Positions 37,826 to 60,933 of a DNA stretch of 64,000 bases are shown here, one piece after another. The position numbers and the translations under genes are program-made. The DNA lies in contig CAKQOE010000003.1 in assembly GCA_934255545.1 (NCBI GenBank), positions 24,813 to 88,812 of the forward strand. The letters are read 5' to 3'. The notes under the pieces were generated by a model. That model was not told the DNA's origin, did no database searches, and was given only the letters and a program-made list of their open reading frames with translations. Position 1 is the first letter of the stretch; each line of letters begins with the position of its first letter. Source of the DNA: an uncultured Clostridia bacterium. GTDB lineage: Bacteria; Bacillota; Clostridia; Peptostreptococcales; Anaerovoracaceae.

Positions 37826-38365
37826 ATGAAGATCGCAGTGATCACAGGAAGCCCTCACAAGGACGGCACATCAGCTTTTCTGGCTGATAATTTCATAAAA
37901 GGCGCGCAGGACGCGGGACACAGCGTTTACCGTTTTGATGCCGCTTTTAAAAATATAAGCCATTGCCAGGCGGACGAGTACTGTCACACTCAGAACTGCA
38001 ACCGCTGCGGCGTAAGCGACGACATGGACGAGCTCTACCCGCACCTGCTTGAGTGCGACCACCTTGTACTCGTATCACCGCTTCATTATAATTCATTCTC
38101 TTCACAGCTCAAGACAGCTATAGACAGGATATACTGCATAGATAAAGAAATGCACCGCAAAGCGAGCGCGTCACTCATCGTTACATACGAAGAAACAGAT
38201 CTTGAGCCTGCAGTAGGCATCGTAGCTTCATTCAAGCAGATGCTCCGCTACTGGGGATGGGATGAAAAGAATATCCTCCTCGCAAAGGGATGTCCTGATA
38301 TGGAGGCTCTGCTCCAGACAGAATACCCTAAGCAGGCGTATATAATGGGAAGAACACTGGCATAG
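37826..38365 (+). CDS. flavodoxin-like fold NADPH-dependent FMN reductase family protein
   Basis: MKIAVITGSPHKDGTSAFLA N-terminal motif. 179 aa. Confidence 0.55.
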   Translation: MKIAVITGSPHKDGTSAFLADNFIKGAQDAGHSVYRFDAAFKNISHCQADEYCHTQNCNRCGVSDDMDELYPHLLECDHLVLVSPLHYNSFSSQLKTAIDRIYCIDKEMHRKASASLIVTYEETDLEPAVGIVASFKQMLRYWGWDEKNILLAKGCPDMEALLQTEYPKQAYIMGRTLA

Positions 38366-38449
38366 ACCGCGTGCGCCCGGCGCACGACAAGCCGCAGGCC
38401 CATTCATACTGTTACAGAAATATACATAAAAATGCAATAACCTCGAAAA

Positions 38450-38528
38450 TACTGCCCAAAGCCGTGACGGAAAATGATATCACCGTCCTGCCGAAGGGCA
38501 GTATTTTTATGCGCGCGTCACCGCGCGT
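38450..38528 (+). repeat. composite hairpin element (terminator-like stem plus GCGCGC palindrome), upstream copy
   Basis: atactgcccaaagcc...gggcagtattttt then gcgcgcgtcaccgcgcg. Similar to the element at 40518..40592. Confidence 0.55.
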
Positions 38529-38790
38529 GAAGCACCGCCGGTGACGGTAAGGGCCGGCTGGTACGAGGACCCTTACAATATAACAGGTGAAAATGGCGAA
38601 AGAAACGGTTACGGTCATGAATACCAGCAGGCTGCAGCGTCGTATACGAGCCGGGGTACAGTTGTTACTATCGTTCCTGAAACTTTTATTGCTGGCAAGT
38701 TTTATTGCAATTGCTATTTGAAGCGGCGGATAGTAAAATCAAAGTGTATATTATGCAGTTTGGAACTTATTAGATAAATATATCTATGAT

Positions 38791-40503
38791 ATGGGGGATA
38801 AAATGGCGGAAGAACTGAAACTGCCGGTCGGTATAGAAAATTTCAGAGAGATAAGAGAGATGGGGTTCTACTATGTCGATAAAACAGGACTGATAGAAGA
38901 GCTCCTTGAACAGTGGGGAAAGGTAAATCTGTTTACAAGGCCGAGGCGCTTTGGCAAAACTCTTAATATGAGCATGTTAAAATATTTTCTTGAGATCGGT
39001 GCTGACAATACTCTGTTTGACGGACTTTATATATCTCAGAATGAAAAGCTTTGCGAACAGTATCTGGGAAAGTTTCCGGTTATTTTTATTACGTTGAAAA
39101 ATGTAGACGGGCTTACATTTGACGAAGCGCAATATCGCATGAAAGAGCTCATAGCAAAAGAAGCCGAACGCTTCAGTTTTCTGAAAGACAGTGCTAAACT
39201 TACAGAAAATGAAAAAAATGCATACAGGTCTGTTATTTCATTCCAGAATGGTCAGTATGCTATGGATGGAAAAAGTCTTGTATCATCATTACAGCTGCTG
39301 TCAGAGCTGTTAAGCAAGCATTACGGTAAGAAGACGGTCATTCTTATAGATGAGTATGATGTTCCGCTTGACAAAGCATTTGATCATGGGTATTACAAAG
39401 AAATGGTAGCACTTGTAAGAGGAGTGTTCGGTCAGGTGCTTAAAACAAATGATTCGCTTCAGTTCGCTGTACTGACAGGCTGTCTGAGAGTTTCAAAGGA
39501 AAGTATTTTTACAGGACTAAATAATTTTAAGGTGCTTTCGATCACTGATACTCGCTTTGATGAGCATTTTGGGTTCACAGATCAGGATGTGAGAGATCTG
39601 CTGAAGGCGTATCATCTTGAATCGCATATTAAAGAAATAAAAGAGTGGTATGACGGATACCGTTTCGGCCGTGCTGATATTTATTGCCCATGGGATGTTA
39701 TCAATCATGTTGACAGACTGCGCAGTGATCCTGAAGCTGAGCCGCAGGCGTACTGGATAAATACCAGCAGTAATGACCTTGTAAGGCGTTTCATAGATAA
39801 AGCGGATCAGACTACGAAGGATGAGATAGAGCGTTTGATGGAAGGCGAGACTATCGAAAAGCAAATAAGGCTCGACCTGACATATGACGAGATAGACAGC
39901 AGCATAGAAAATCTCTGGAGCGTGCTGTTTACAACAGGTTATCTTACACTGACGGACAGACCGCAGCGCGGAGTATACAGGCTGAAGATCCCTAATGAAG
40001 AGATACGTGAAGTTTATGAGCATACGATAAAGCAGCTGTTCAAAGATATCGTTCTGAACGATGTGGATGAGCTTAGAAAGTTCTGGAGGGCTTTTACCGA
40101 AGGAAACGCTCAGGAAATAGAAAAACGGCTGTCGAAAATGTTGAGCCGTACCATAAGCATATACGATGTGAAGAAAAATGACGGCGAGAGCTTTTATCAC
40201 GCGTTTCTTGCAGGAATACTTGTCGGTAACGCGGCCTGGGGCGTGGTATCAAACAGAGAAGGCGGCGACGGGCGCCCTGATATTATCGTAAAAACAGAAG
40301 ACCAGGATGCGGGCATCATAATAGAGCTGAAAAGAGCAGACTCATTTTCTGACCTTGACGATAAATGCCGTAAAGCACTGGATCAGATACGTGAGCGAAG
40401 ATATGACGAGTACCTGAGAAATGAAGGAAGAAACGACATATGGGTTTATGGTATAGCTTTTTATAAAAAACGCTGCAGAGTTATTGCAGAAAAATTAAAA
40501 TAA
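38791..40503 (+). CDS. predicted AAA-ATPase with C-terminal PD-(D/E)XK nuclease-like domain (DUF1703-type)
   Basis: 570 aa. Conserved N-terminus GIENFREIREMGFYYVDKTGLIEELL...RPRRFGKTLNMSMLKYF characteristic of this family. C-terminal D...E.K-like segment (GRPDIIVKTEDQDAGIIIELK). Confidence 0.65.
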   Translation: MGDKMAEELKLPVGIENFREIREMGFYYVDKTGLIEELLEQWGKVNLFTRPRRFGKTLNMSMLKYFLEIGADNTLFDGLYISQNEKLCEQYLGKFPVIFITLKNVDGLTFDEAQYRMKELIAKEAERFSFLKDSAKLTENEKNAYRSVISFQNGQYAMDGKSLVSSLQLLSELLSKHYGKKTVILIDEYDVPLDKAFDHGYYKEMVALVRGVFGQVLKTNDSLQFAVLTGCLRVSKESIFTGLNNFKVLSITDTRFDEHFGFTDQDVRDLLKAYHLESHIKEIKEWYDGYRFGRADIYCPWDVINHVDRLRSDPEAEPQAYWINTSSNDLVRRFIDKADQTTKDEIERLMEGETIEKQIRLDLTYDEIDSSIENLWSVLFTTGYLTLTDRPQRGVYRLKIPNEEIREVYEHTIKQLFKDIVLNDVDELRKFWRAFTEGNAQEIEKRLSKMLSRTISIYDVKKNDGESFYHAFLAGILVGNAAWGVVSNREGGDGRPDIIVKTEDQDAGIIIELKRADSFSDLDDKCRKALDQIRERRYDEYLRNEGRNDIWVYGIAFYKKRCRVIAEKLK

Positions 40504-40517
40504 TAGGACATCTTAGA

Positions 40518-40592
40518 TACTGCCTAAAGCTGAAGCGGAGCACAATGCACTGAAGAAGCTTAGGGCAGTATTTTTTTGCGCGCCCGGCGCGC
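40518..40592 (+). repeat. composite hairpin element (terminator plus GCGCGC palindrome), downstream copy
   Basis: atactgcctaaagct...agggcagtattttttt then gcgcgcccggcgcgc. Functions as a terminator for the AAA-ATPase gene. Confidence 0.6.
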
Positions 40593-40737
40593 TCCACACA
40601 ATATGTTTAGAAAAAACATAATTATTTTTTTATCGTAGCAGTGCAATGACAAGTTCATTTTATCAGTGCTCAGTAACATTATAGAGAAAATATACTATAT
40701 TATTTCTTAAAATTTCATTAGTAATAATACGTAGCTC

Positions 40738-40768
40738 TTGATTTTTTAGGGGGGGGGTAGCGTATAAT
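40738..40768 (+). promoter_or_regulatory. sigma-A-type promoter with G9 homopolymer in the spacer
   Basis: TTGATT (40738-40743), 19-nt spacer containing G9 (40749-40757), TATAAT (40763-40768). About 95 nt upstream of the SLH protein start. Confidence 0.5.
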
Positions 40769-40863
40769 GGGATTAATTTATGGCATAAAGATTGCATATT
40801 CAAAATTATTTTGAATATTTTATTCTTTATGCGTAAATTTACATGCGAAGAGGAGGAATTTAT

Positions 40864-41724
40864 ATGAAACGTAAAACATTTGCAACTTTACTTTGCCTGT
40901 GTATGGCTGTTTCAATGACAACTGCGTCAGTATTTGCCGCAGATACTGGATCAACTCAGCCAACGACAACACCGACAACATCAACAACACCGACGACACC
41001 GACAACGCCGACAACGCCGACAACACCGACGACACCAACAACGCCGACAACGCCGACGACGCCGACAACACCGACGACGCCGACAACACCAGCAACACCG
41101 ACAACACCGGGTGGTGGCGGTCATCACAGTGGCGGTGGCAGCGGCAGTAGCAGCAGTAGTGGTGGTAGTAGTACTACTACCACACCTACTACAGAGAAGA
41201 ATTTCTCTGATGTATCTGCAGGAAGTTACTACTATGAGGCTGTTAAGTGGGCTAGTAAGCTTGGTATCGTAGAGGGTACTACTAATACTACATTTGCGCC
41301 AAATGATAATTGCACTCGCGCACAGATGGTTACGTTCCTGTGGAGACAGGCTGGAAGTCCAAAGGCTGCATCTGCAAAAAATCCATTTAGCGATGTTTCT
41401 GAAAATGCTTATTATTATGATGCTGTGATATGGGCTGTAGAAAATGGAATTACTAATGGTGTGACAGAGACTACATTTGCGCCAAATGATAAAGTAACTC
41501 GTGCTCAGACAGTTACGTTCCTTCATCGTAAAGATAAGTCTCCAAATGTAAACGGTACACTTAAATTTAATGATGTTCAGATGAACAGTTTCTATGCAAA
41601 AGCAGTTATCTGGGCGACTGAAGCTGGTATTACCAATGGCACTACAGCTACAACTTTTGATCCAAATGACCCATGTACACGTGCACAGATAGTTACGTTC
41701 ATGTATCGTAATAGCGCAAAATAA
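40864..41724 (+). CDS. secreted SLH-domain protein with (TTPTTP)n repeat linker
   Basis: Signal peptide MKRKTFATLLCLCMAVSMTTASVFA after RBS GAGGAGG. Thr/Pro repeat region. Gly/Ser-rich segment. Three SLH-like repeats (FSDVSAGSYYYEAVKWA..., FSDVSENAYYYDAVIWA..., FNDVQMNSFYAKAVIWA...). Confidence 0.7.
   Translation: MKRKTFATLLCLCMAVSMTTASVFAADTGSTQPTTTPTTSTTPTTPTTPTTPTTPTTPTTPTTPTTPTTPTTPTTPATPTTPGGGGHHSGGGSGSSSSSGGSSTTTTPTTEKNFSDVSAGSYYYEAVKWASKLGIVEGTTNTTFAPNDNCTRAQMVTFLWRQAGSPKAASAKNPFSDVSENAYYYDAVIWAVENGITNGVTETTFAPNDKVTRAQTVTFLHRKDKSPNVNGTLKFNDVQMNSFYAKAVIWATEAGITNGTTATTFDPNDPCTRAQIVTFMYRNSAK
40966..41100 (+). repeat. tandem 18-nt coding repeat (acaccgacgacgccgaca-type) encoding TTPTTP units
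   Basis: Direct reading of the sequence: seven or more near-identical ccgacaac(a/g)ccgac(a/g)ac units. Confidence 0.8.
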
Positions 41725-41843
41725 AGTTCTGGCAGATTTTTAAAATCATTATGAACAGTGAGAGGATATGGAGTTGGGCAAAGTGTTCAGCTCCATATTT
41801 GTTATATGACGCAATTACTTTATGAAAGGATCATTAATAGGCT

Positions 41844-44800
41844 ATGAGATTAAAGAAAATCAAACCGAAAAAGGTACTTTCACTTGTGTTATCATGCGCC
41901 TTAATTTCATCTTTGATAACACCTGCGGCTTTTGCAGCAGTGAAAAAAGTGATGCCGCCTGATGGCAAAGTACTTATCTCTCAAACGGATCATAAATTAG
42001 CTAATGGTGTTACTGAATCAGATGTATTTTTAAATGAAGCCAGTGGTAATGCACAGATCGCAGGCTATATGCTGACTGTTGAGCCAGATTCGCAGGCGAC
42101 TTTTAAAGCTTCTTACAGGAATTATTATACAGATGGAAGTACGATCGACAGCCGAAAGAATAATGCAAAAAACTTGAAGTGGGGACTTGAGTCTACCACT
42201 GATCAGGCTGCTGATTATGAGCGTGCTACAGGTGGCAATGTGATCGCCGCTATTAATGGTGATTATTATAATATGCAGACCGGACAGCCATTAGGTTATC
42301 TGATTATGGAAGGAAATCTTGTTCAGAAAAATAATGGCAGCTCGAATGAGCCGTACTTTGCAGTTTTAAAGGATGGTAGTTTTGCAATCAGAGAACCTGG
42401 AACGGATTGCTCTGATGTTCAGGAAGCGATATCTGGTCCGTTTTACCTTGTTCACGACGGTCAAATAGTTGTTGATCCCAATAATACTGACCTGATGCCG
42501 AGGAATTCAATTGGTGTTAAGGAAGATGGTACAGTAGTAACTTTTGTGGCAGATGGACGTCAGTACCCATATTCAGTAGGAATGAGTATATACGACCTGG
42601 CATGCTATTATGAAAAACAAGGTGTAGAAAACGCAATATATTTGGATGGAGGAGGATCAGCTACATTTGCTTCAAAGCGTGAAGGTACAAATAAACTTGA
42701 GATCCGCAACAGTCCTTCTGATGGAGTAGAACGTACTGTTTCAAGCGCGCTGCTGCTGGTCTCAACTGCAGATAAGGATGGTAAATTTGATCATGCTTCT
42801 GTAGAACCAAATAATCAGTTGTATACACCGGGAAGTACTGTACAGTTCTCTGCTTCTGGAGTTGATGCAGCAGGTGGTCCTGCTGATCTTCCGGATGATA
42901 TTAAATGGACACTTAAAGAAGATAGCTGTGGTAATATTGATAAAAATGGTTTATTTACTCCTGCAAAAGACTATCGCGGTAATGTAGAGGTACAGTTATT
43001 ATATGAAAATAATGTGATCGGTTCCACTGATGTCACAATTGCAGATGTTACAGATATTTCATTTACAGGTGATTCTGCTTCTTTAGATTTTGGCGCGGAG
43101 TCTGATCTTGGTTTAACTGTTAAGAGCAATGGCCGTGATATTATATACAAAAATGGTGACTTTATCTGGTCAGTTACACCTGAAGATATTGGATCAGTTG
43201 AAAATAACATTTTTACTGCTGCAGGAGGAACTAATACTTTGACAGGCAATGTCAAGGTTTCATATGTATATGATGATAGTATAGCCGATTCTATTTCAGT
43301 CGAAATAGGTAAGATGCCTGAAGTCCTTATAGATTTTGAACCTGATGAGAACGGACCGCTGACGGGTGCTCATTATCATTGGGGCAAAGAGGATTTCGTG
43401 AAGGCAGGTATTACAGAAGGTTATAGTGGAAGTGTTTCTCCTGTTGAGGTAATAACCAGTGGTGCGTATTCTGACAACCCTGTTCACAGTATGCTGGAAG
43501 CTCCTTTCATTTTTACAGGAAACTGGGATACTGCTGTTCCTGCGGCGGACATTTTCCGGGCTAACGGTTACACTTTCTATTTATGGCCTAATAATTCTAT
43601 TACTACTTACAATGTAGGCACTGTAAAAACATCTACCGAGGAAGAAGGCGGTCATGTTCGATTCGGTGACTATTCGCTGGAATTGAACTATGATTATTCT
43701 TCTTATAATGGTACAAGCAACAGTAATTTTTATCTCAGATACTGTGGTGAGCAGAAGAAGATCGAAGGTTATCCGACTCAGATCGGCGTTTGGGTATATG
43801 TACCGGAAGGCTCTTGGAAATATTCAATGTATGCAGATCTGGTGTATTGGAATGGATCTGATTATTCAACTAAGAATTTTAAACTTTATCATGCTAAAAA
43901 CGGCGATACAAGTGATACGAGTGAAGGCAATATAACTACAGAGACAGACTGGAGCGGATGGCGTTATTGCTATGCAGATGTAGGGGAATTTTTTGCATCA
44001 TATCAGAACGCGGAACATCCTATAAGCATAATTCCGGGTCAGGGATTATTCTGGTTATCATATCAGCCTGGTGGAGATTCTGAATTTAAGGGACGTAAGA
44101 ACGGTTCTGTATTTTACGATAATTATCGTGTTGTATACGGCACTAATCTTGATGACCTGGATAATCCTATGATTGACAGCATAACTGTTAATGATAAGTC
44201 TTTAGAAGAGGACAGCAGCACAGTTATCGATGCTAATACTATTGAGATCGAGACAAAATATCATGATGTCGATGGTAATAATAAGTCCGGTATCAATGCC
44301 AGTGCAACAGTGATACTTATTGACGGCAAGGAAATGACAGCTGATAAAGCTGATGACATTGCACTCAGCAGGCTTGAAATGACTAACGGACATCATGTAG
44401 TTACTGTGAGAGTATATGATAATTTTGGAAATGCAGCTGAAATGACAAGAGGTTTCACTGTTTACAACGGTGATGAAGACAAGACGTCTACTGTTTCTAT
44501 CTTAGGTGACGATTTTGTACCTTTGGGCGGTGAATATACACTTAAGGTAATTTCTACTGAAGATATCCAAAGCGTATATATGATCCTGTCAAATCTTAAT
44601 TCTGATATTGGTGAACCTGAAGTAAAGCCTAGCGATGGATGGAAAGTAACCCAGCAAGAATATAAGAACACAGGCTTCAAAAAAGCATCTCTTACTCTAA
44701 AATTGGAGAAAAAAGAGACTTCAAGTCTCATGATGCGCATAAAACGGAAACTTGATGATCTTTTAACTAAAGATCTGGCAGAGATCACATTCCATATCGA

Positions 44801-47800
44801 CAAGAATATGGATACTACTGTCAATTCATTCACATATACACCTGCAAGCATAATGTACATTGGCAAAGATGGCGTGGAAAAGACTGCGGCTTTACCTGCA
44901 GTCAAGTATGAATTGTCTGCTTATTATACATTGAAACCTGGAATCCAGGTCGAAGGGCAGAGCAGTATCATTACAGTTTTAAATAAAGATGGAACACCTG
45001 CTTCTGAAGTAACGATATATTTGAACGGAACAGAAATCGGTAAAACAGATGATTCAGGGCAACTTGAAACTGACGCCATGAAAGAAATGAAGGCTAATAC
45101 GGAGTACACTCTTACGGCAGATGGAAGTAAGGGTGTAGCAGAAGCTGTGAAGTCAACTGTGCTTGCTAATACATTTACAGACGAAGAACCTTTTAAGGCG
45201 ATACATCTGAATGCTTCAGAGAATGGATCTACAGATCAGAACATAAGCTTTTTAAGTGATCCGACAAGATCTGCTGCATCTGCATATGTAAAGTATCGTA
45301 TTGCTGATACAGGATCAGAGTGGCAGATAGTTTCAGGAAGTAGCACTTTAACTGATTTCAGCACCAGCAAAAATGCTGCGAGAGTCAATGCGATACATAT
45401 TACAGGATTAAAGCCAGAGACTAAATATGAATTTATGGTAGGCGATGGTGAAAAATGGTCTGAAATAAAAACGTTCAGTACGGTTACTGAAGCTGATGAT
45501 GCTGATACATCTTTCTTTGTTATGGGCGATACTCAGATGAGTGGAGATCAGGAAAGTGATGCTGATAAAGAAGCTCTGAAGATCATGCAGGATCTGAGCA
45601 GTATTCTTAAAGGCAAAAAAGTAGATTTTGGCTTACAAACTGGCGATTATGTAGATAATGGCAGCAATCTTGCCATGTGGCAGGAAATGCAGGATGCGTT
45701 CAGTTCATGCTATCCTTCAACAGATATCATACATACTTTAGGCAACCATGAGTATTATGGAAATGCCACCGGTGATATTGCTAATAATATTTTACAACTT
45801 CCGGACAAAGATTATTATTCTGTAGAATATGGAAGCGTATATGTAGCTGTGATCAATAATTCTGCAGATCTTAATAAGGCATGTGAATGGCTCATAACTG
45901 ATGCTGCCAAGAGCAATTGTCAGTGGAAAGTACTGGCTGTACATCAGCCTCCTTACTATACCAATGCTAACGGCGGAAGTGAAAAATTTAACAAAATTAT
46001 TCCTGATGCAGCAGAGAAAGCAGGTATTAATGTTGTTTTCTCAGGGCATGATCATTCTTATGCCAGAACGCCTATGCTAAAGGATGGACAGGCAGTTGAA
46101 GAAAACGGTGTAGTATACTTTATATGCGGAGATCTGGGTGAAAAGTCCAGAAATGTAAACTACGCTATAACATCCGGTTTTAAATATGAACATGCCACAC
46201 AGGATTATACAGGCATTATGCTGTACGTTACAGCTGAAGATGGTACTATGTCTATCACTGCTTACGATAGCACTGGCGGAGGTAATATTTTAGACAGTGT
46301 AGTTCTTAATTCAGCATGCAAAGACGGTCACGATTACGAAATATATGACAATGATACGGGCAAGGTAGTCTGCAGTCGCTGTGGACATTCAGAAACACTT
46401 GAAAAATTGAAATATACTGGTTGGCTGTCTGTAAAGAATACAAATGATAAAATGTATTTTATCGATGGTAAGTATAAAACAGGCTGGTTTACTATCGGTA
46501 CTACTACGTACCATTTCTCAGATGAAGGTATAATGCATGAGACAACAACAGTAGATACACGTACCTGCACAAAGAGTGGCGCACTTGTAACTACATGTAA
46601 TGTATGTCATGCTCAGCAGTCAAGTCAGTCACTGTGGCCAGAAGGACATAACTGGGATAGTGAACACGTATGCACGAAATGCGGTACTGTCGGTAAGGAT
46701 ATTTCAAAGGCAGAATTGCAAGTATATAATGCTACGATGGATGATCCAAGAGCAGCTGTGGTAGCTACTTATGACAATACTAAGCTAACTCTTAAGAGCA
46801 GCCAGGTAAACTGTGATGGTTATGTGACATATTCAAATAATGCAGGTGTTGGCGTTGGTACAGTTACTATTACAGGTGAGGGAGACTTTTACGGTACAGT
46901 TTCTGCAAGCTATAAAATTACACCAGGAGTTGTAAAGAGTGTGACTGTTGGTACAGTTACACGCAACAGCATAGACCTTAATTGGTCTGAAAGTAAGGGC
47001 GCAACGAAATATCGTGTGGAGATCAGTAAAGATGGTGGATCCACATGGTCATCTGTGAGATATACTTCTGATAACAAGATGACAGTTACTGGACTGGAGA
47101 CGGGTGTTTCGTACGCATTCAGATTATATGGTTATACATACATTGGTGATGTGTGCTACAGTGCACCACACTATTCTTCTGTAGTTACTGCAATTACGGA
47201 AAGCAATAAGGAACCGTCTACTCAGGATCATATTTCAAATATCATTGCAAAAGTTTCAGGTGCAGATCTGTCTATGCAGTTAGTTGATGGTACAGCATAT
47301 CTGTTCCTACCTTCTTATGCTGATATGACACAATTACCTTTAACATTTACTATGCGTGATATTGAAACAGATAGAGTGACATTAAGCGGTGATGCAGGAA
47401 ATGTAATATTAGATAGCCTTTCAGATACAGTGAATATGACTGAGATCACTGGTGATAAGGGTGGCCGCATGATGGTACAGATAGATGGACTCAGTGCAAT
47501 GCCTGTATATGTCATGCATTCAGATAATATTTCGTCGATGTATATTACAAGTGATGATCCTGAAAATAAGGGCAGAGAATTTGTAGATGCAAGTAAATCA
47601 AACAAGGCAACTGCTCAGATGAAGCTGATCAGCGAAGATGGCACTGTAATTTACGATGATGCAATGTCGCAGTTAAAAGCTCGAGGCAATACAACTTTCG
47701 TAAACGCAGAAAAGAAGTCTTATCAAATCAAATTGAAAAATAAGACTGACCTTATAGAATGCGGTGAAAAAAACAAGACATGGGTACTGCTTGCCGGTTA

Positions 47801-49997
47801 CTTTGATGCTACTCAGATGCATGATAAGGCGTATAAGGACTTAGCAAGAAGTATCGGTATGAGCTATGTCCCTAACTGCGACTGGATCGATCTGTATTAT
47901 GACGGAGAGTATCGAGGAACGTATCTCCTTGGTGAGAAAAATTCTGTAGGTAAGACTGGCGTAAATGTTACAGATATGGAAGAAGCTTACGAAGGTTTAA
48001 ATACAGATTACGGTGTCAATGCGATAACTGCTACTGCTGAAAATCGTTATGGATGTACATATCAGTATACAAAGAATCTAACAGAACCAGATGATATTAC
48101 AGGTGGTTACTTGTTAGAGTTAAATATGCCTGGTTATGATGAAGCCAGCGGTTTCAAGACGGTTAACGGAGCTGTTTTAAATGTAAAGAGTCCTGAGTGG
48201 TGCGGAAAAGATGCCATGGAATACATCAGTGAATATTATCAGGATTTTGAAAATGCAGTTTATGCGACTGATGAAAATGGTAACTATACTGGTTATAACG
48301 AGGCTACGGGTAAGTATTATTACGAATACTGTGATCTTACATCTTTAGTTCAGATGTATCTTATACAAGAGCTTGCCAATAATGTAGATGGTTTTTATTC
48401 ATCTTTCTATTTCTATAAAGACGCTGACGGCATAATGTATGCAGGTCCTGTATGGGATATGGAATCTACTGCTGGCAGTGGATGGTCAGGATATGTCAGT
48501 CCAGATATGGAATTTATCAATGGCCGTTATCTGGCAAAGGCTCTGACTCAGATACCTGGATTTATGAGTGCAGTAAAAGAATATTATAATGATACATTCA
48601 GAGGTGCTTCAGAGAAGCTTATAGGTGATAATGGGATCTTGCAGCAGAGCTCACAGAAAATTTCTGCAAGTACATCTATGAATTATGTTATGTGGCCTTA
48701 CATCAGAGTGGGCAATCCGAAAACCAGCAATCATCTGTGGCCTGACGGAACAACATATAATACAGTAGTAGATGATATGGTCTCATGGATAAAGAAACGT
48801 ATTGATGCATTGGATGCATCTTATCCTAAAGATGGACCAATCACTCCTGTTGAACCGACTGACCCTGTTGAACCAACGATTCCAACGGAGCCGACTGTCC
48901 CTGTTGAACCAACGATTCCGACTCAGCCGACAGTTCCGGCAGATCGTATTTATACGGTGAAAGCTGATTACTATATTAATGGCAGAAAAGTAAATAGCGA
49001 GCCTGTGGAACTCTTGTGCGGCACAGCAGAAGTAGATACAGTTATTACGATCGTTCCGGAAAATACATGGAGCACATATAATGGAGAACATTATATACTG
49101 GATACGTCAGACATGAAAATAGCAGTTACTGCTGAGTCGGAAAAGAATGTGCTGATATTACGCTATAATAAAACGAGTGGTGGAAGCAGTAGCGGAAGTG
49201 GTTCACATGCCTCGAACTATACAGTTTCTGTTGGTAATGTAAATAATGGTACGGTAACCGTTTCCTCTAAGGTTGCAGCTAAAGATGATACCATAATCAT
49301 CACGGCGAGTCCAAATAAGGGATATGATCTGAAAAGCATCACTGTTTTGGACAAAAATGGAAATAGTATAAAGTATATTGAGAAGGACGGAAAATATATA
49401 TTTAATATGCCGACCTCTAATGTAACGGTTTCTGCTTCATTTGTTAAGGATAACAGTCAGGCTGATAACAAGATGTTTGATGATGTCCTGCCGGGTTCTT
49501 ACTATTATGATGCTGTAAAGTGGGCAATAGAAAATGATATTACAAATGGTAAGACAGAAAAACTCTTTGGTTCAGACGATCCTTGTACGCGAGGTCAGAT
49601 CGTTACATTCCTTTGGAGAGCGGCAGGTTCACCTGAAGCATCTAAATCAGCAAACTTTACGGACGTAAATGATAATGATTATTATGCAAAGGCAATAGCG
49701 TGGGCTGTAGAGAGCGGAATAACTAATGGTACAGGAAAAGGTCTATTCTCTCCTGATGAGACATGTACCAGAGCTCAGTGCGTAGCGTTCTTATATCGTG
49801 CTGCAGGAATTCCTGATATAGATGGTATATCAGCATTTAATGACGTAGCATCAGACGCTTACTACGCAAAAGCAGTAATCTGGGCAGAACGGAATGGTAT
49901 CACAAAAGGTATCAGTGATAATATGTTCGGTTCAGCTAACAGCTGTACTCGCTCACAGATAATCACATTCAGTTACAGATATGCTCAGTGCAAGTAA
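41844..49997 (+). CDS. giant (2717 aa) SLH-anchored surface protein with phosphodiester glycosidase, Ig-like/FN3, calcineurin-like metallophosphoesterase and CotH kinase-like domains
   Basis: Signal peptide. NAGPA-like phosphodiester glycosidase region (AINGDYYN...IYLDGGGSATF). Metallophosphoesterase motifs (FFVMGDTQ, GDYVDNG, LGNHEY, VFSGHDHSYAR). CotH-like region (WVLLAGYFDATQMHDKAYKDLA...IDLYYDGEYRGTYLL). PT-rich linker (PTDPVEPTIPTEPTVPVEPTIPTQPTVP). Three C-terminal SLH repeats. Confidence 0.7.
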   Translation: MRLKKIKPKKVLSLVLSCALISSLITPAAFAAVKKVMPPDGKVLISQTDHKLANGVTESDVFLNEASGNAQIAGYMLTVEPDSQATFKASYRNYYTDGSTIDSRKNNAKNLKWGLESTTDQAADYERATGGNVIAAINGDYYNMQTGQPLGYLIMEGNLVQKNNGSSNEPYFAVLKDGSFAIREPGTDCSDVQEAISGPFYLVHDGQIVVDPNNTDLMPRNSIGVKEDGTVVTFVADGRQYPYSVGMSIYDLACYYEKQGVENAIYLDGGGSATFASKREGTNKLEIRNSPSDGVERTVSSALLLVSTADKDGKFDHASVEPNNQLYTPGSTVQFSASGVDAAGGPADLPDDIKWTLKEDSCGNIDKNGLFTPAKDYRGNVEVQLLYENNVIGSTDVTIADVTDISFTGDSASLDFGAESDLGLTVKSNGRDIIYKNGDFIWSVTPEDIGSVENNIFTAAGGTNTLTGNVKVSYVYDDSIADSISVEIGKMPEVLIDFEPDENGPLTGAHYHWGKEDFVKAGITEGYSGSVSPVEVITSGAYSDNPVHSMLEAPFIFTGNWDTAVPAADIFRANGYTFYLWPNNSITTYNVGTVKTSTEEEGGHVRFGDYSLELNYDYSSYNGTSNSNFYLRYCGEQKKIEGYPTQIGVWVYVPEGSWKYSMYADLVYWNGSDYSTKNFKLYHAKNGDTSDTSEGNITTETDWSGWRYCYADVGEFFASYQNAEHPISIIPGQGLFWLSYQPGGDSEFKGRKNGSVFYDNYRVVYGTNLDDLDNPMIDSITVNDKSLEEDSSTVIDANTIEIETKYHDVDGNNKSGINASATVILIDGKEMTADKADDIALSRLEMTNGHHVVTVRVYDNFGNAAEMTRGFTVYNGDEDKTSTVSILGDDFVPLGGEYTLKVISTEDIQSVYMILSNLNSDIGEPEVKPSDGWKVTQQEYKNTGFKKASLTLKLEKKETSSLMMRIKRKLDDLLTKDLAEITFHIDKNMDTTVNSFTYTPASIMYIGKDGVEKTAALPAVKYELSAYYTLKPGIQVEGQSSIITVLNKDGTPASEVTIYLNGTEIGKTDDSGQLETDAMKEMKANTEYTLTADGSKGVAEAVKSTVLANTFTDEEPFKAIHLNASENGSTDQNISFLSDPTRSAASAYVKYRIADTGSEWQIVSGSSTLTDFSTSKNAARVNAIHITGLKPETKYEFMVGDGEKWSEIKTFSTVTEADDADTSFFVMGDTQMSGDQESDADKEALKIMQDLSSILKGKKVDFGLQTGDYVDNGSNLAMWQEMQDAFSSCYPSTDIIHTLGNHEYYGNATGDIANNILQLPDKDYYSVEYGSVYVAVINNSADLNKACEWLITDAAKSNCQWKVLAVHQPPYYTNANGGSEKFNKIIPDAAEKAGINVVFSGHDHSYARTPMLKDGQAVEENGVVYFICGDLGEKSRNVNYAITSGFKYEHATQDYTGIMLYVTAEDGTMSITAYDSTGGGNILDSVVLNSACKDGHDYEIYDNDTGKVVCSRCGHSETLEKLKYTGWLSVKNTNDKMYFIDGKYKTGWFTIGTTTYHFSDEGIMHETTTVDTRTCTKSGALVTTCNVCHAQQSSQSLWPEGHNWDSEHVCTKCGTVGKDISKAELQVYNATMDDPRAAVVATYDNTKLTLKSSQVNCDGYVTYSNNAGVGVGTVTITGEGDFYGTVSASYKITPGVVKSVTVGTVTRNSIDLNWSESKGATKYRVEISKDGGSTWSSVRYTSDNKMTVTGLETGVSYAFRLYGYTYIGDVCYSAPHYSSVVTAITESNKEPSTQDHISNIIAKVSGADLSMQLVDGTAYLFLPSYADMTQLPLTFTMRDIETDRVTLSGDAGNVILDSLSDTVNMTEITGDKGGRMMVQIDGLSAMPVYVMHSDNISSMYITSDDPENKGREFVDASKSNKATAQMKLISEDGTVIYDDAMSQLKARGNTTFVNAEKKSYQIKLKNKTDLIECGEKNKTWVLLAGYFDATQMHDKAYKDLARSIGMSYVPNCDWIDLYYDGEYRGTYLLGEKNSVGKTGVNVTDMEEAYEGLNTDYGVNAITATAENRYGCTYQYTKNLTEPDDITGGYLLELNMPGYDEASGFKTVNGAVLNVKSPEWCGKDAMEYISEYYQDFENAVYATDENGNYTGYNEATGKYYYEYCDLTSLVQMYLIQELANNVDGFYSSFYFYKDADGIMYAGPVWDMESTAGSGWSGYVSPDMEFINGRYLAKALTQIPGFMSAVKEYYNDTFRGASEKLIGDNGILQQSSQKISASTSMNYVMWPYIRVGNPKTSNHLWPDGTTYNTVVDDMVSWIKKRIDALDASYPKDGPITPVEPTDPVEPTIPTEPTVPVEPTIPTQPTVPADRIYTVKADYYINGRKVNSEPVELLCGTAEVDTVITIVPENTWSTYNGEHYILDTSDMKIAVTAESEKNVLILRYNKTSGGSSSGSGSHASNYTVSVGNVNNGTVTVSSKVAAKDDTIIITASPNKGYDLKSITVLDKNGNSIKYIEKDGKYIFNMPTSNVTVSASFVKDNSQADNKMFDDVLPGSYYYDAVKWAIENDITNGKTEKLFGSDDPCTRGQIVTFLWRAAGSPEASKSANFTDVNDNDYYAKAIAWAVESGITNGTGKGLFSPDETCTRAQCVAFLYRAAGIPDIDGISAFNDVASDAYYAKAVIWAERNGITKGISDNMFGSANSCTRSQIITFSYRYAQCK

Positions 49998-50034
49998 AAA
50001 ATAGATAGGTTTATTAATAACTTTATCTAACAAA

Positions 50035-50092
50035 AAACGTCGTAGTTTACTACCGGTCATATATCGGATAGTAAGCTTACGACGTTTTTTAT
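50035..50092 (+). terminator. intrinsic terminator after giant surface protein gene
   Basis: aaaaaacgtcgtag...cttacgacgtttttt. Confidence 0.7.
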
Positions 50093-50183
50093 TATATCAA
50101 TAAGGAAAGTTTAGCGCGCCCGGCGCGCTCACAGCGCTGCAGAACGCAAAGATAAAATCATTTACTGGATCAAATAGTTTATA

Positions 50184-50843
50184 TTATTCGGTGTAAATAT
50201 CGCTGCGTATCTTTTCGGAAAGGTCAGCAACGGTATTTTCGTCATATGACGCTGCAAACTCAGTCGATGTCATCACAGTCACGCCGATGCGCGCCATATC
50301 GTCGATGTTGGTGCGCTGTATCTCAGGCGTCTGCGATGAGCAGCAGTCCTCAAGCGCGATGACGTTATAGTCGAGCGATATCCCATCGTATGCCGTCGTG
50401 CGGATGCAGTTTGGCGTAGTAGTGCCTGTCAGTATTATGTTCCGTACACCTAAACGGCGTAAAATAAGATCGAGCTCTGTCTGAAAGAATGCGCTGAAGC
50501 GCGGCTTTATGATGATATAGTCCTCAGGACGCGGCGCCAGCGCCGCAGGCTCTTCTATGCTGCACGGGCCGGCGGAGCCCGGCGCGAGAACGTTTTCAGC
50601 GGATCTCCAGCATTCGTACCGCGTATTTTCAACGTCGCTTCCGTCAGGACGATATATACGCTTTACGTAAAACACAGGTATGCCCTTTTCGCGAGCTGCT
50701 TCTATCGCGGAAGCAAGCACAGGAACGGTAGCAGCCGCCCCGGCGATGCAGAGCGGAGAAGCAGGGTCGATAAAACCGTTTTCCATATCTATGATTATAA
50801 ATGCGGAACGTGTTGTATTAGCTTTTCTTTTATGTGATGACAT
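50184..50843 (-). CDS. isochorismatase-family cysteine hydrolase
   Basis: FIIIDMENGF, VFYVKRIY and catalytic Cys context NCIRTTAYDG. 219 aa. Confidence 0.7.
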   Translation of the reverse strand: MSSHKRKANTTRSAFIIIDMENGFIDPASPLCIAGAAATVPVLASAIEAAREKGIPVFYVKRIYRPDGSDVENTRYECWRSAENVLAPGSAGPCSIEEPAALAPRPEDYIIIKPRFSAFFQTELDLILRRLGVRNIILTGTTTPNCIRTTAYDGISLDYNVIALEDCCSSQTPEIQRTNIDDMARIGVTVMTSTEFAASYDENTVADLSEKIRSDIYTE

Positions 50844-60634: not shown

Positions 60635-60933
60635 TATATAAGCAAAGTAATAAATACCCATATATGTCAGTAAGCTGCGCTCACGCGCAGAACAAGCTGA
60701 CGACGCGCCCGGCGCGTCAACAGGACCTGCAGCCGTTGCTTTCTGCGGTTATGAGCAGCCGCTGCAGGTCTCCTTCTCCAGCCCCACCCCCCCCGCCCCA
60801 AAAAAGCGAGAAACAAAAAACAAACCAAAAACAAACAAAACACAACACAAAAACGCGCCGTCCATCCGGACCGCGCGTTTTTCCACACCCTGAAATCAAA
60901 ACTACAGGACGCCTGAGTATTTAAAGCGTCTTT

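Follow-up and report, generated by a model that had tools for sequence, protein, structure and literature searches.

Can a run of nine G bases, lying between the two hexamers of a predicted promoter, act as a slippage switch for a bacterial surface protein? The question is raised by a locus in the 64,000-nucleotide stretch of DNA analysed here (the window), in which the sequence cTTGATTttttagggggggggtagcgTATAATgg (40738-40768, written out as TTGATT-TTTTAGGGGGGGGGTAGCG-TATAAT) precedes the gene for a secreted protein with three S-layer-homology (SLH) domains. The distance from the end of the -10 box to this gene is 96 nt. A sequence-only reading of the locus had proposed slipped-strand phase variation through the promoter spacer, based on a TTGATT -35 hexamer, nine consecutive G, a 19-nt spacer and a perfect TATAAT -10 hexamer. 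These elements are present exactly as described, and the accompanying spacer arithmetic is correct (19 nt for G9, 17 nt for G7). The features of the locus are collected in Table 1.

Table 1. Features of the SLH locus, with positions numbered from the first base of the window.
Feature	Position	Strand	Remarks
9.7-kb island	40507-50193	.	strain-variable; holds the promoter and both surface-protein genes
AAA-ATPase gene terminator and REP-like palindrome	40520-40592	+	stem 40520-40568, T7 40571-40577
-35-like hexamer TTGATT	40738-40743	+	4/6 to TTGACA, TTG intact; unchanged in all four haplotypes
Promoter spacer TTTT A G9 TAGCG	40744-40762	+	19 nt in the window
G9 homopolymer, variable element	40749-40757	.	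run-spectrum outlier with length polymorphism
-10 hexamer TATAAT	40763-40768	+	perfect (6/6), no TG extension; unchanged in all haplotypes
Leader stem-loop	40774-40841	+	begins at the predicted transcription start (~40775)
Ribosome-binding site GAGGAGG	40850-40856	+	7 nt ahead of the ATG at 40864
Gene for predicted secreted protein, 286 aa	40864-41724	+	signal-peptide-like N-terminus, (TTP)n stalk, G/S-rich linker, three SLH domains
9-bp tandem repeat, 16.2 copies	40964-41109	+	encodes the (TTP)n stalk
Terminator- or attenuator-like hairpin	41764-41799	+	~16-bp stem (with G-U pairs), then U-rich UUUGUUAUAU
Gene for SLH-anchored multi-domain protein, 2717 aa	41844-49997	+	

The AAA-ATPase/PD-(D/E)XK gene upstream ends in a clear terminator (40520-40577), hence the SLH gene needs a promoter of its own, and the terminator region as a whole (40520-40592) is predicted to insulate the SLH gene from read-through. 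We scanned the whole intergenic region (40505-40863) for hexamer pairs with spacers of 15-20 nt. The TTGATT-19-TATAAT pair ranks first with 10/12 matches, and it is the sole pair to combine a TTG start of the -35 box with a perfect -10 box. A standard promoter scan omits this site because it accepts spacers of 16-18 nt only. The 19 nt of the window allele indeed falls outside the canonical sigma-70/sigma-A spacing (17 ± 1 nt); a distance of 18 nt is reached only by the allele with eight G (in L010), and ten G give 20 nt. The optimal spacer of 17 nt is absent from the seven readings of the tract described below, all of which have 18-20 nt, and the 19 nt of the commonest allele is expected to make a poor sigma-A promoter. 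As the -10 box has no TG extension, contact with the -35 box should matter. In L010 the next-best candidate, GTAACA-17-TATATT (40673-40701), is without the final T (T6) of its -10 box, an invariant position. We infer that the TTGATT/TATAAT pair is the promoter in use and that transcription starts near 40775, an assignment made at sequence level from the best hexamers, their identity in four haplotypes and a leader hairpin located at the predicted +1. No second copy of the promoter was found in the window.

A MerR-type activator-dependent promoter, with its 19-20 nt spacer, was also considered. It was rejected, as no inverted repeat lies within or spans 40744-40762, and a spacer without dyad does not support a long-spacer promoter of this type. 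An inverted repeat of TATTATTTCT and AGTAATAATA is found further upstream, at 40698-40707 and 40720-40729. Two independent assemblies of the window haplotype (L016 and L017) both end at base 40720, 29 nt before the G tract; this shared contig end could possibly reflect a repeat boundary elsewhere in the genome, or a branch in the assembly graph.

An inverted repeat with 18-nt arms starts at 40774, matching the start expected 7 nt past the -10 box. The minimum free energy of the leader is -20.8 kcal/mol for the window allele (z -3.1) and -16.2 kcal/mol for the only other allele class (z -1.55). The outer stem, GCATAAAGA (40783-40791) paired with TCTTTATGC (40824-40832), is kept in both leader alleles. 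Inside it, the window allele carries a perfect palindrome, ATATTCAAAAT-T-ATTTTGAATAT (40796-40818), which in the second allele (L010 and L066) is swapped by four SNPs for a shifted hairpin, AATGATTT-TGAAT-AAATCATT. From the sequence, the change of the inner hairpin looks like a structure-preserving allele replacement, affecting either an RNA hairpin or an operator. A stem-loop at the 5' terminus would be consistent with an mRNA-stabilising leader, given how mRNA decays in Firmicutes. A riboswitch or other known structured RNA leader was rejected: an Rfam cmscan of 38000-43000 (E ≤ 1) returned one chance-level match only, located elsewhere, and no Rfam family matches the region.

The gene starting at 40864 had been taken to encode a secreted SLH protein with a hypervariable-looking TP repeat, and both parts of this description are borne out. 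The three SLH domains of the 286-aa protein are recognised by Pfam (E = 1e-42) and its N-terminus resembles a signal peptide. The (TTP)n stalk measures 52 aa in the window, 85 aa in L012 and 91 aa in L002, the last of which is also without a 15-bp GHHSG-coding segment at 41114. This repeat is a recurrent break point of short-read contigs. The giant protein encoded downstream combines NAGPA phosphodiester glycosidase, purple-acid-phosphatase N-terminal, Metallophos, fn3, CotH and Flg_new_2 domains with three SLH domains. With its signal-peptide-like N-terminus, its three SLH domains and a giant SLH enzyme downstream, the gene product is of the surface type in which phase variation might be looked for. 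The hairpin at 41764-41799 sits in the 120-nt gap between the SLH gene and the giant gene, and by its sequence may be an attenuator that determines how much of one product is made relative to the other.

The G tract itself is a statistical outlier. Runs of G or C are depleted in the window (46% GC): there are 71 runs of at least four bases and five of at least five, and beyond these lengths only one C8 and the G9 tract. The probability of extending a run by one base falls from 0.19 to 0.07 with growing run length, and three G5 runs are observed against 33 expected from base composition alone. If the 71 runs of at least four bases are extended at the rate of 0.07, runs of nine or more are expected ~1e-4 times. 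Given both the depletion and this expectation, the G9 tract is not background. The spectrum of runs skips from G5 straight to G9, the other long run being the C8 at 60787-60794. Loci encoding relatives of the giant protein were taken from 30 other genomes, and their ~300 kb contain no G/C run of eight or more. The tract also has the form of a hypermutable repeat, for which an uninterrupted G/C run of about 7-8 or more is typical: it comprises eight to ten G in different assemblies and is never broken.

Seven readings of the tract were obtained, one from the window and six from gut-metagenome assemblies, each a consensus sequence. The locus was reached in ENA and Logan assemblies by looking up the exact proteins of neighbouring genes, the sources being human-gut metagenome assemblies that include Hadza and Nepal cohorts. 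Besides ERZ4560264 and ERZ15610137, from which two of the readings below stem, the locus is carried by ERZ27287162, ERZ28614046, ERZ27287018, ERZ4567799, ERZ28614768, ERZ28634632 and run ERR7745975. Exact-flank pattern scans with a variable gap gave no match in GTDB species-representative genomes or JGI metagenomes; the locus is rare and is reached only through exact-protein look-ups. The window SLH protein itself is not on record as an exact match, because the length of its TP repeat differs among strains. A homology search with the whole SLH protein was swamped by low-complexity sequences and SLH paralogues and yielded no orthologue, and a repeat-deleted query recovered only truncated 132-aa gene calls, from which a single further haplotype (L066) was obtained. 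Look-ups starting at the right side of the island (with the giant protein, the isochorismatase and the giant-protein variant P0245) were discarded, the contigs halting in the TP repeat, short of the promoter.

A uniform length of nine G across strains had been named in advance as the outcome that would speak against phase variation. When this comparison was run, lengths of eight, nine and ten G were seen, and the proposal survived. Nine G are found in five of the seven readings (window, L012, L013, L015 and L066), eight in one (L010/L014, ERZ4560264) and ten in one (L002/L011, ERZ15610137), corresponding to spacers of 19, 18 and 20 nt, respectively. Around the tract nothing in the promoter changes: the four aligned haplotypes share one -35 box, one set of non-G spacer bases and one -10 box, while substitutions occur in 24 other columns of the 349 aligned. 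Between the window and L010 the G tract is the sole indel over 5163 bp, accompanied by 18 SNPs. Eleven of the 18 fall within 40695-40821 (127 bp), on either side of an SNP-free core at 40717-40781, and this cluster could be a recombination patch or a diversifying change in the regulatory flanks. Two T7 runs located 120-180 bp upstream, at 40571-40577 and 40623-40629, are constant in the window, L002 and L010; one of them is T8 in L066.

The distribution of tract lengths over haplotypes is informative on two counts. The 5'UTR alleles fall into class I (window type), found with G9 and G10, and class II (L010 and L066), found with G8 and G9. As both classes carry two tract lengths, at least two independent one-base events have occurred. 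L066 is ~92% identical to the window across the island and still has an uninterrupted G9. At closer range, L013 and L015 match the window at 100% identity and L012 at 99.9%, and the readings on the window haplotype or no more than 0.2% from it (window, L012, L013 and L015) all have nine G. Hence, tract length follows lineage at the level of consensus sequences, with no scatter within a clone. The contigs L015, L016 and L017 stop at the tract or within 30 nt of it. These ends were rejected as a sign of heterogeneity within samples, because contigs break at the control C tract likewise and Illumina reads fail at G tracts (PMC9187656).

The C8 run serves as this control, as it lies in a non-promoter position between convergent amino-acid permease and EamA genes. 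Its length in the fetched contigs is C8 in three, C6 in one and C5 in three. Since the control is polymorphic too, length variation is generic to long G/C runs and by itself is no proof of function. The two tracts differ in their fate in diverged haplotypes, where the control shrinks and gains neighbouring substitutions, while the promoter tract holds eight to ten G. The C8 is surrounded by an odd C/A-rich low-complexity stretch (60770-60855), which reads GGGGCGGGGGGGGTGGGG on the minus strand and is G-quadruplex-like. Several contigs break near it.

The promoter and both surface-protein genes belong to a strain-variable island with a GC content of ~0.40, against ~0.49 in the flanks. The island is missing from many strains that are otherwise 97-99% identical in the flanks; in these the AAA-ATPase gene is followed by 156 bp and then by the isochorismatase gene. 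The AAA-ATPase/PD-(D/E)XK gene (38528-40506) is a second strain-variable module, missing too in one strain. Just past its terminator lies the REP-like palindrome GCGCGCCCGGCGCGC (40578-40592), and identical copies of this sequence at 40578 and 50114 bracket the 9.7-kb island. The junctions of strains without the island and of the strain without the AAA-ATPase gene fall at units made up of GGGCAGTATTTTT and a GCGCGC palindrome, and REP-like palindromes have six matches where 0.18 are expected. The arrangement of these sequences suggests that gene modules may be gained and lost by recombination at REP-like repeats. REP-like GC palindromes after terminators were noted at 38371-38385, 40578-40592, 50114-50128 and 60703-60717, with a variant near 38510. 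The insertion/deletion hotspot adjoins a queuosine-precursor operon.

The closest relatives of the island are in Oscillospiraceae, with Dysosmobacter at 77% identity followed by Faecousia and Lawsonibacter. These best matches have 50-65% GC, compared to ~0.40 for the island. The lower GC of the island, together with its relatives in Oscillospiraceae, suggests horizontal acquisition, and taxonomy drawn from the island is unreliable. No G tract was found in the loci of giant-protein relatives from other genomes, including that of Dysosmobacter (L018). As the promoters of these relatives are non-homologous and have no tract, the tract is lineage-specific. The small TP-rich SLH gene is kept in only four of the related loci (L018, L019, L020 and L033), all without the tract, and these four include the three closest by giant-protein identity. 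In L018 (2923-3436, Dysosmobacter sp. HCP28S3_G4) a promoter-like TTGAAA-16-TATAAT site was observed ~480 nt before the ATG of the orthologous SLH gene. The sequence implies that the TP-rich SLH gene of this genome would have a long GC-rich leader and no homopolymer tract.

Taken together, we consider the G tract a credible candidate, supported in part, for phase variation or tuning through the promoter spacer, and put the chance that it is indeed a phase-variable or tunable promoter at about even. The proposed mechanism places a slippage-prone G run in the spacer of a sigma-A (sigma-70-type) promoter of the small SLH gene, which may also drive the giant SLH enzyme gene via read-through. [quoted passage not shown] Since the spacer of every observed allele exceeds the optimum, expression from the locus would be low or off most of the time, and G8 would be the most active of the alleles seen. 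By the sigma-70 spacing rule, and with porA as a precedent (PMC3639595), spacer length would affect expression; the rate of switching and its reversibility are presumed, as is a selective benefit such as escape from phage or IgA. Of the phase variation originally proposed, the architecture and the polymorphism of the tract have thus stood. Against it count the restriction to supra-optimal spacers of 18-20 nt, tract lengths that track lineage, and a control C8 that varies too.

These counterpoints define what the alternatives have to offer. The weightiest of them, although we regard it as unlikely, is tuning at the level of lineages: the promoter is real and tract length affects its strength, but changes are rare and become fixed over evolutionary time. 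Such an account fits the ties between each tract length and a distinct haplotype, the uniform G9 of all window-haplotype readings, the recurrence of G9 in five of the seven readings with the divergent L066 among them, and the similar between-lineage length differences of the control C tract. It sits less well with the established knowledge that runs of G8-G10 are intrinsically hypermutable in every bacterium tested (PMC3639595, PMC9187656) and with one-base changes on both 5'UTR allele backgrounds. Furthermore, a metagenome consensus reports the majority allele only and hides minority variants, and the tract has stayed long and uninterrupted over ~8% divergence where the control has not. Rather improbable, and next in weight, is an incidental tract, a G run in a leader or in inert DNA with neutral length changes, the SLH gene being transcribed from elsewhere, for instance from GTAACA-17-TATATT or a non-sigma-A promoter. 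Upstream promoter-like sites do have a proper spacing of 17-18 nt, while a 19-nt spacer makes a poor sigma-A promoter; the variable non-promoter C8 and the orthologous operons of other genera, which have no tract at all, point the same way. Yet the -10 box of the alternative site is destroyed in L010, whereas TTGATT and TATAAT are invariant in four haplotypes amid a SNP-rich region, and the conserved leader hairpin begins at the +1 predicted from TATAAT. The region also matches no Rfam family. Moreover, in a genome that purges runs beyond five, a neutral G9 should decay as the control does, and eight to ten G have been kept.

The least weighty alternative, which we hold to be very improbable, is that the true tract is uniformly G9, its apparent length differences being artefacts that arose in sequencing or in assembly from Illumina data of low coverage. 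Coverage, as given in the contig names, is only 2.6x for the G8 contig and 5.5x for the G10 contig, three further contigs end at the tract or up to 30 nt from it, contigs also break near the control C tract, and Illumina data are subject to read failure and length errors at G tracts (PMC9187656). The tract is nevertheless real, since seven readings drawn from several studies all show it between identical flanks. In the contigs concerned, the other homopolymers (two T7, A6 and T6) are all called correctly, the G tract being the only indel in 5.2 kb, and it is unlikely that two consensus errors arose independently, one in each direction.

The closest precedent for a phase-variable or tunable spacer is the poly-G tract of the porA promoter in Neisseria meningitidis, in which 11 G give high expression, 10 G a 2.2-fold lower and 9 G a 13-fold lower level (PMC3639595). 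The likeness lies in a poly-G run within the promoter spacer, whose one-base changes grade expression in porA, and in tract lengths that differ between strains; related spacer tracts in Neisseria are the poly-C tracts of opc and fetA. The differences are considerable. PorA is an outer-membrane porin of a Gram-negative pathogen, whereas the locus described here encodes an SLH-anchored protein in a metagenome-assembled genome of an uncultured gut Clostridia bacterium. The common porA allele has optimal spacing and its variants are shorter, in contrast to the 18-20 nt found here, all above the optimum. Switching and its effect on expression are proven for porA and, for the present locus, predicted. 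Repeats in the -35/-10 spacer also switch surface structures in two other bacteria, through the (TA)n repeat of hifA/hifB in Haemophilus influenzae (summarised in PMC9187656) and the poly-A tract of vlp in Mycoplasma hyorhinis. In both systems, as would apply here, a simple-sequence repeat in the spacer alters the promoter geometry of a surface-structure gene. They differ in that their repeats are dinucleotides or poly-A and are experimentally shown on/off switches, compared to poly-G here; vlp is furthermore a multigene family, and the window holds no paralogous copy of the promoter.

Closer in habitat is Bifidobacterium breve, in which G-tract slippage controls sortase-dependent pili and the expressing length is enriched in vivo (PMC9187656). 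Its authors mention further G tracts in promoter spacers (PMC9187656). This organism likewise is a Gram-positive commensal of the human gut with G-tract control of a surface structure. Its tracts, however, lie in coding sequence and act as frameshift on/off switches, and it is an actinobacterium rather than a member of Clostridia. Phase-variable surface proteins are also known from Clostridioides difficile cwpV and from invertible promoters in gut Firmicutes and Bacteroides. Surveys of such invertons in gut bacteria are available (PMC11892184, PMC9286219). [quoted passage not shown] They rely on site-specific inversion by a recombinase between inverted repeats, whereas the element here is a homopolymer with no flanking inverted repeats. 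In the best-ranked literature (20 of 202 and 15 of 119 matching papers), programmed variation in gut bacteria or Clostridia consists of inversions or methylation (PMC11892184, PMC9286219, PMC11741434). Among these best-ranked matches, no paper was found on a homopolymer promoter switch acting on SLH proteins or operating in gut Clostridia.

Heritable on/off or graded control of surface proteins has been well documented for Gram-negative pathogens; the instances known from gut anaerobes mostly involve invertible promoters. Homopolymer promoter switches are invisible to inverton surveys, which are based on inverted repeats. If the G tract is a lineage-level polymorphism only, the finding is an ordinary one. 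More tentatively than the spacer mechanism itself, we envisage a layered system as a possibility, in which a poly-G spacer contingency switch would vary the SLH operon on top of island presence or absence at terminator/REP-like units and of (TTP)n variation. Were this true, the locus would clearly exemplify promoter phase variation by a simple-sequence repeat, acting on SLH proteins in a strictly anaerobic gut Firmicutes bacterium, and would point to strong phage or IgA pressure on the SLH surface module. The proposal is a credible one that extends a known principle to a new host group, and existing metagenomic reads could test it. A tract that works in this way would mean that gut Clostridia employ slippage switches for SLH-anchored proteins as well, and surveying outliers among G/C runs in run-purging genomes could uncover more such switches.
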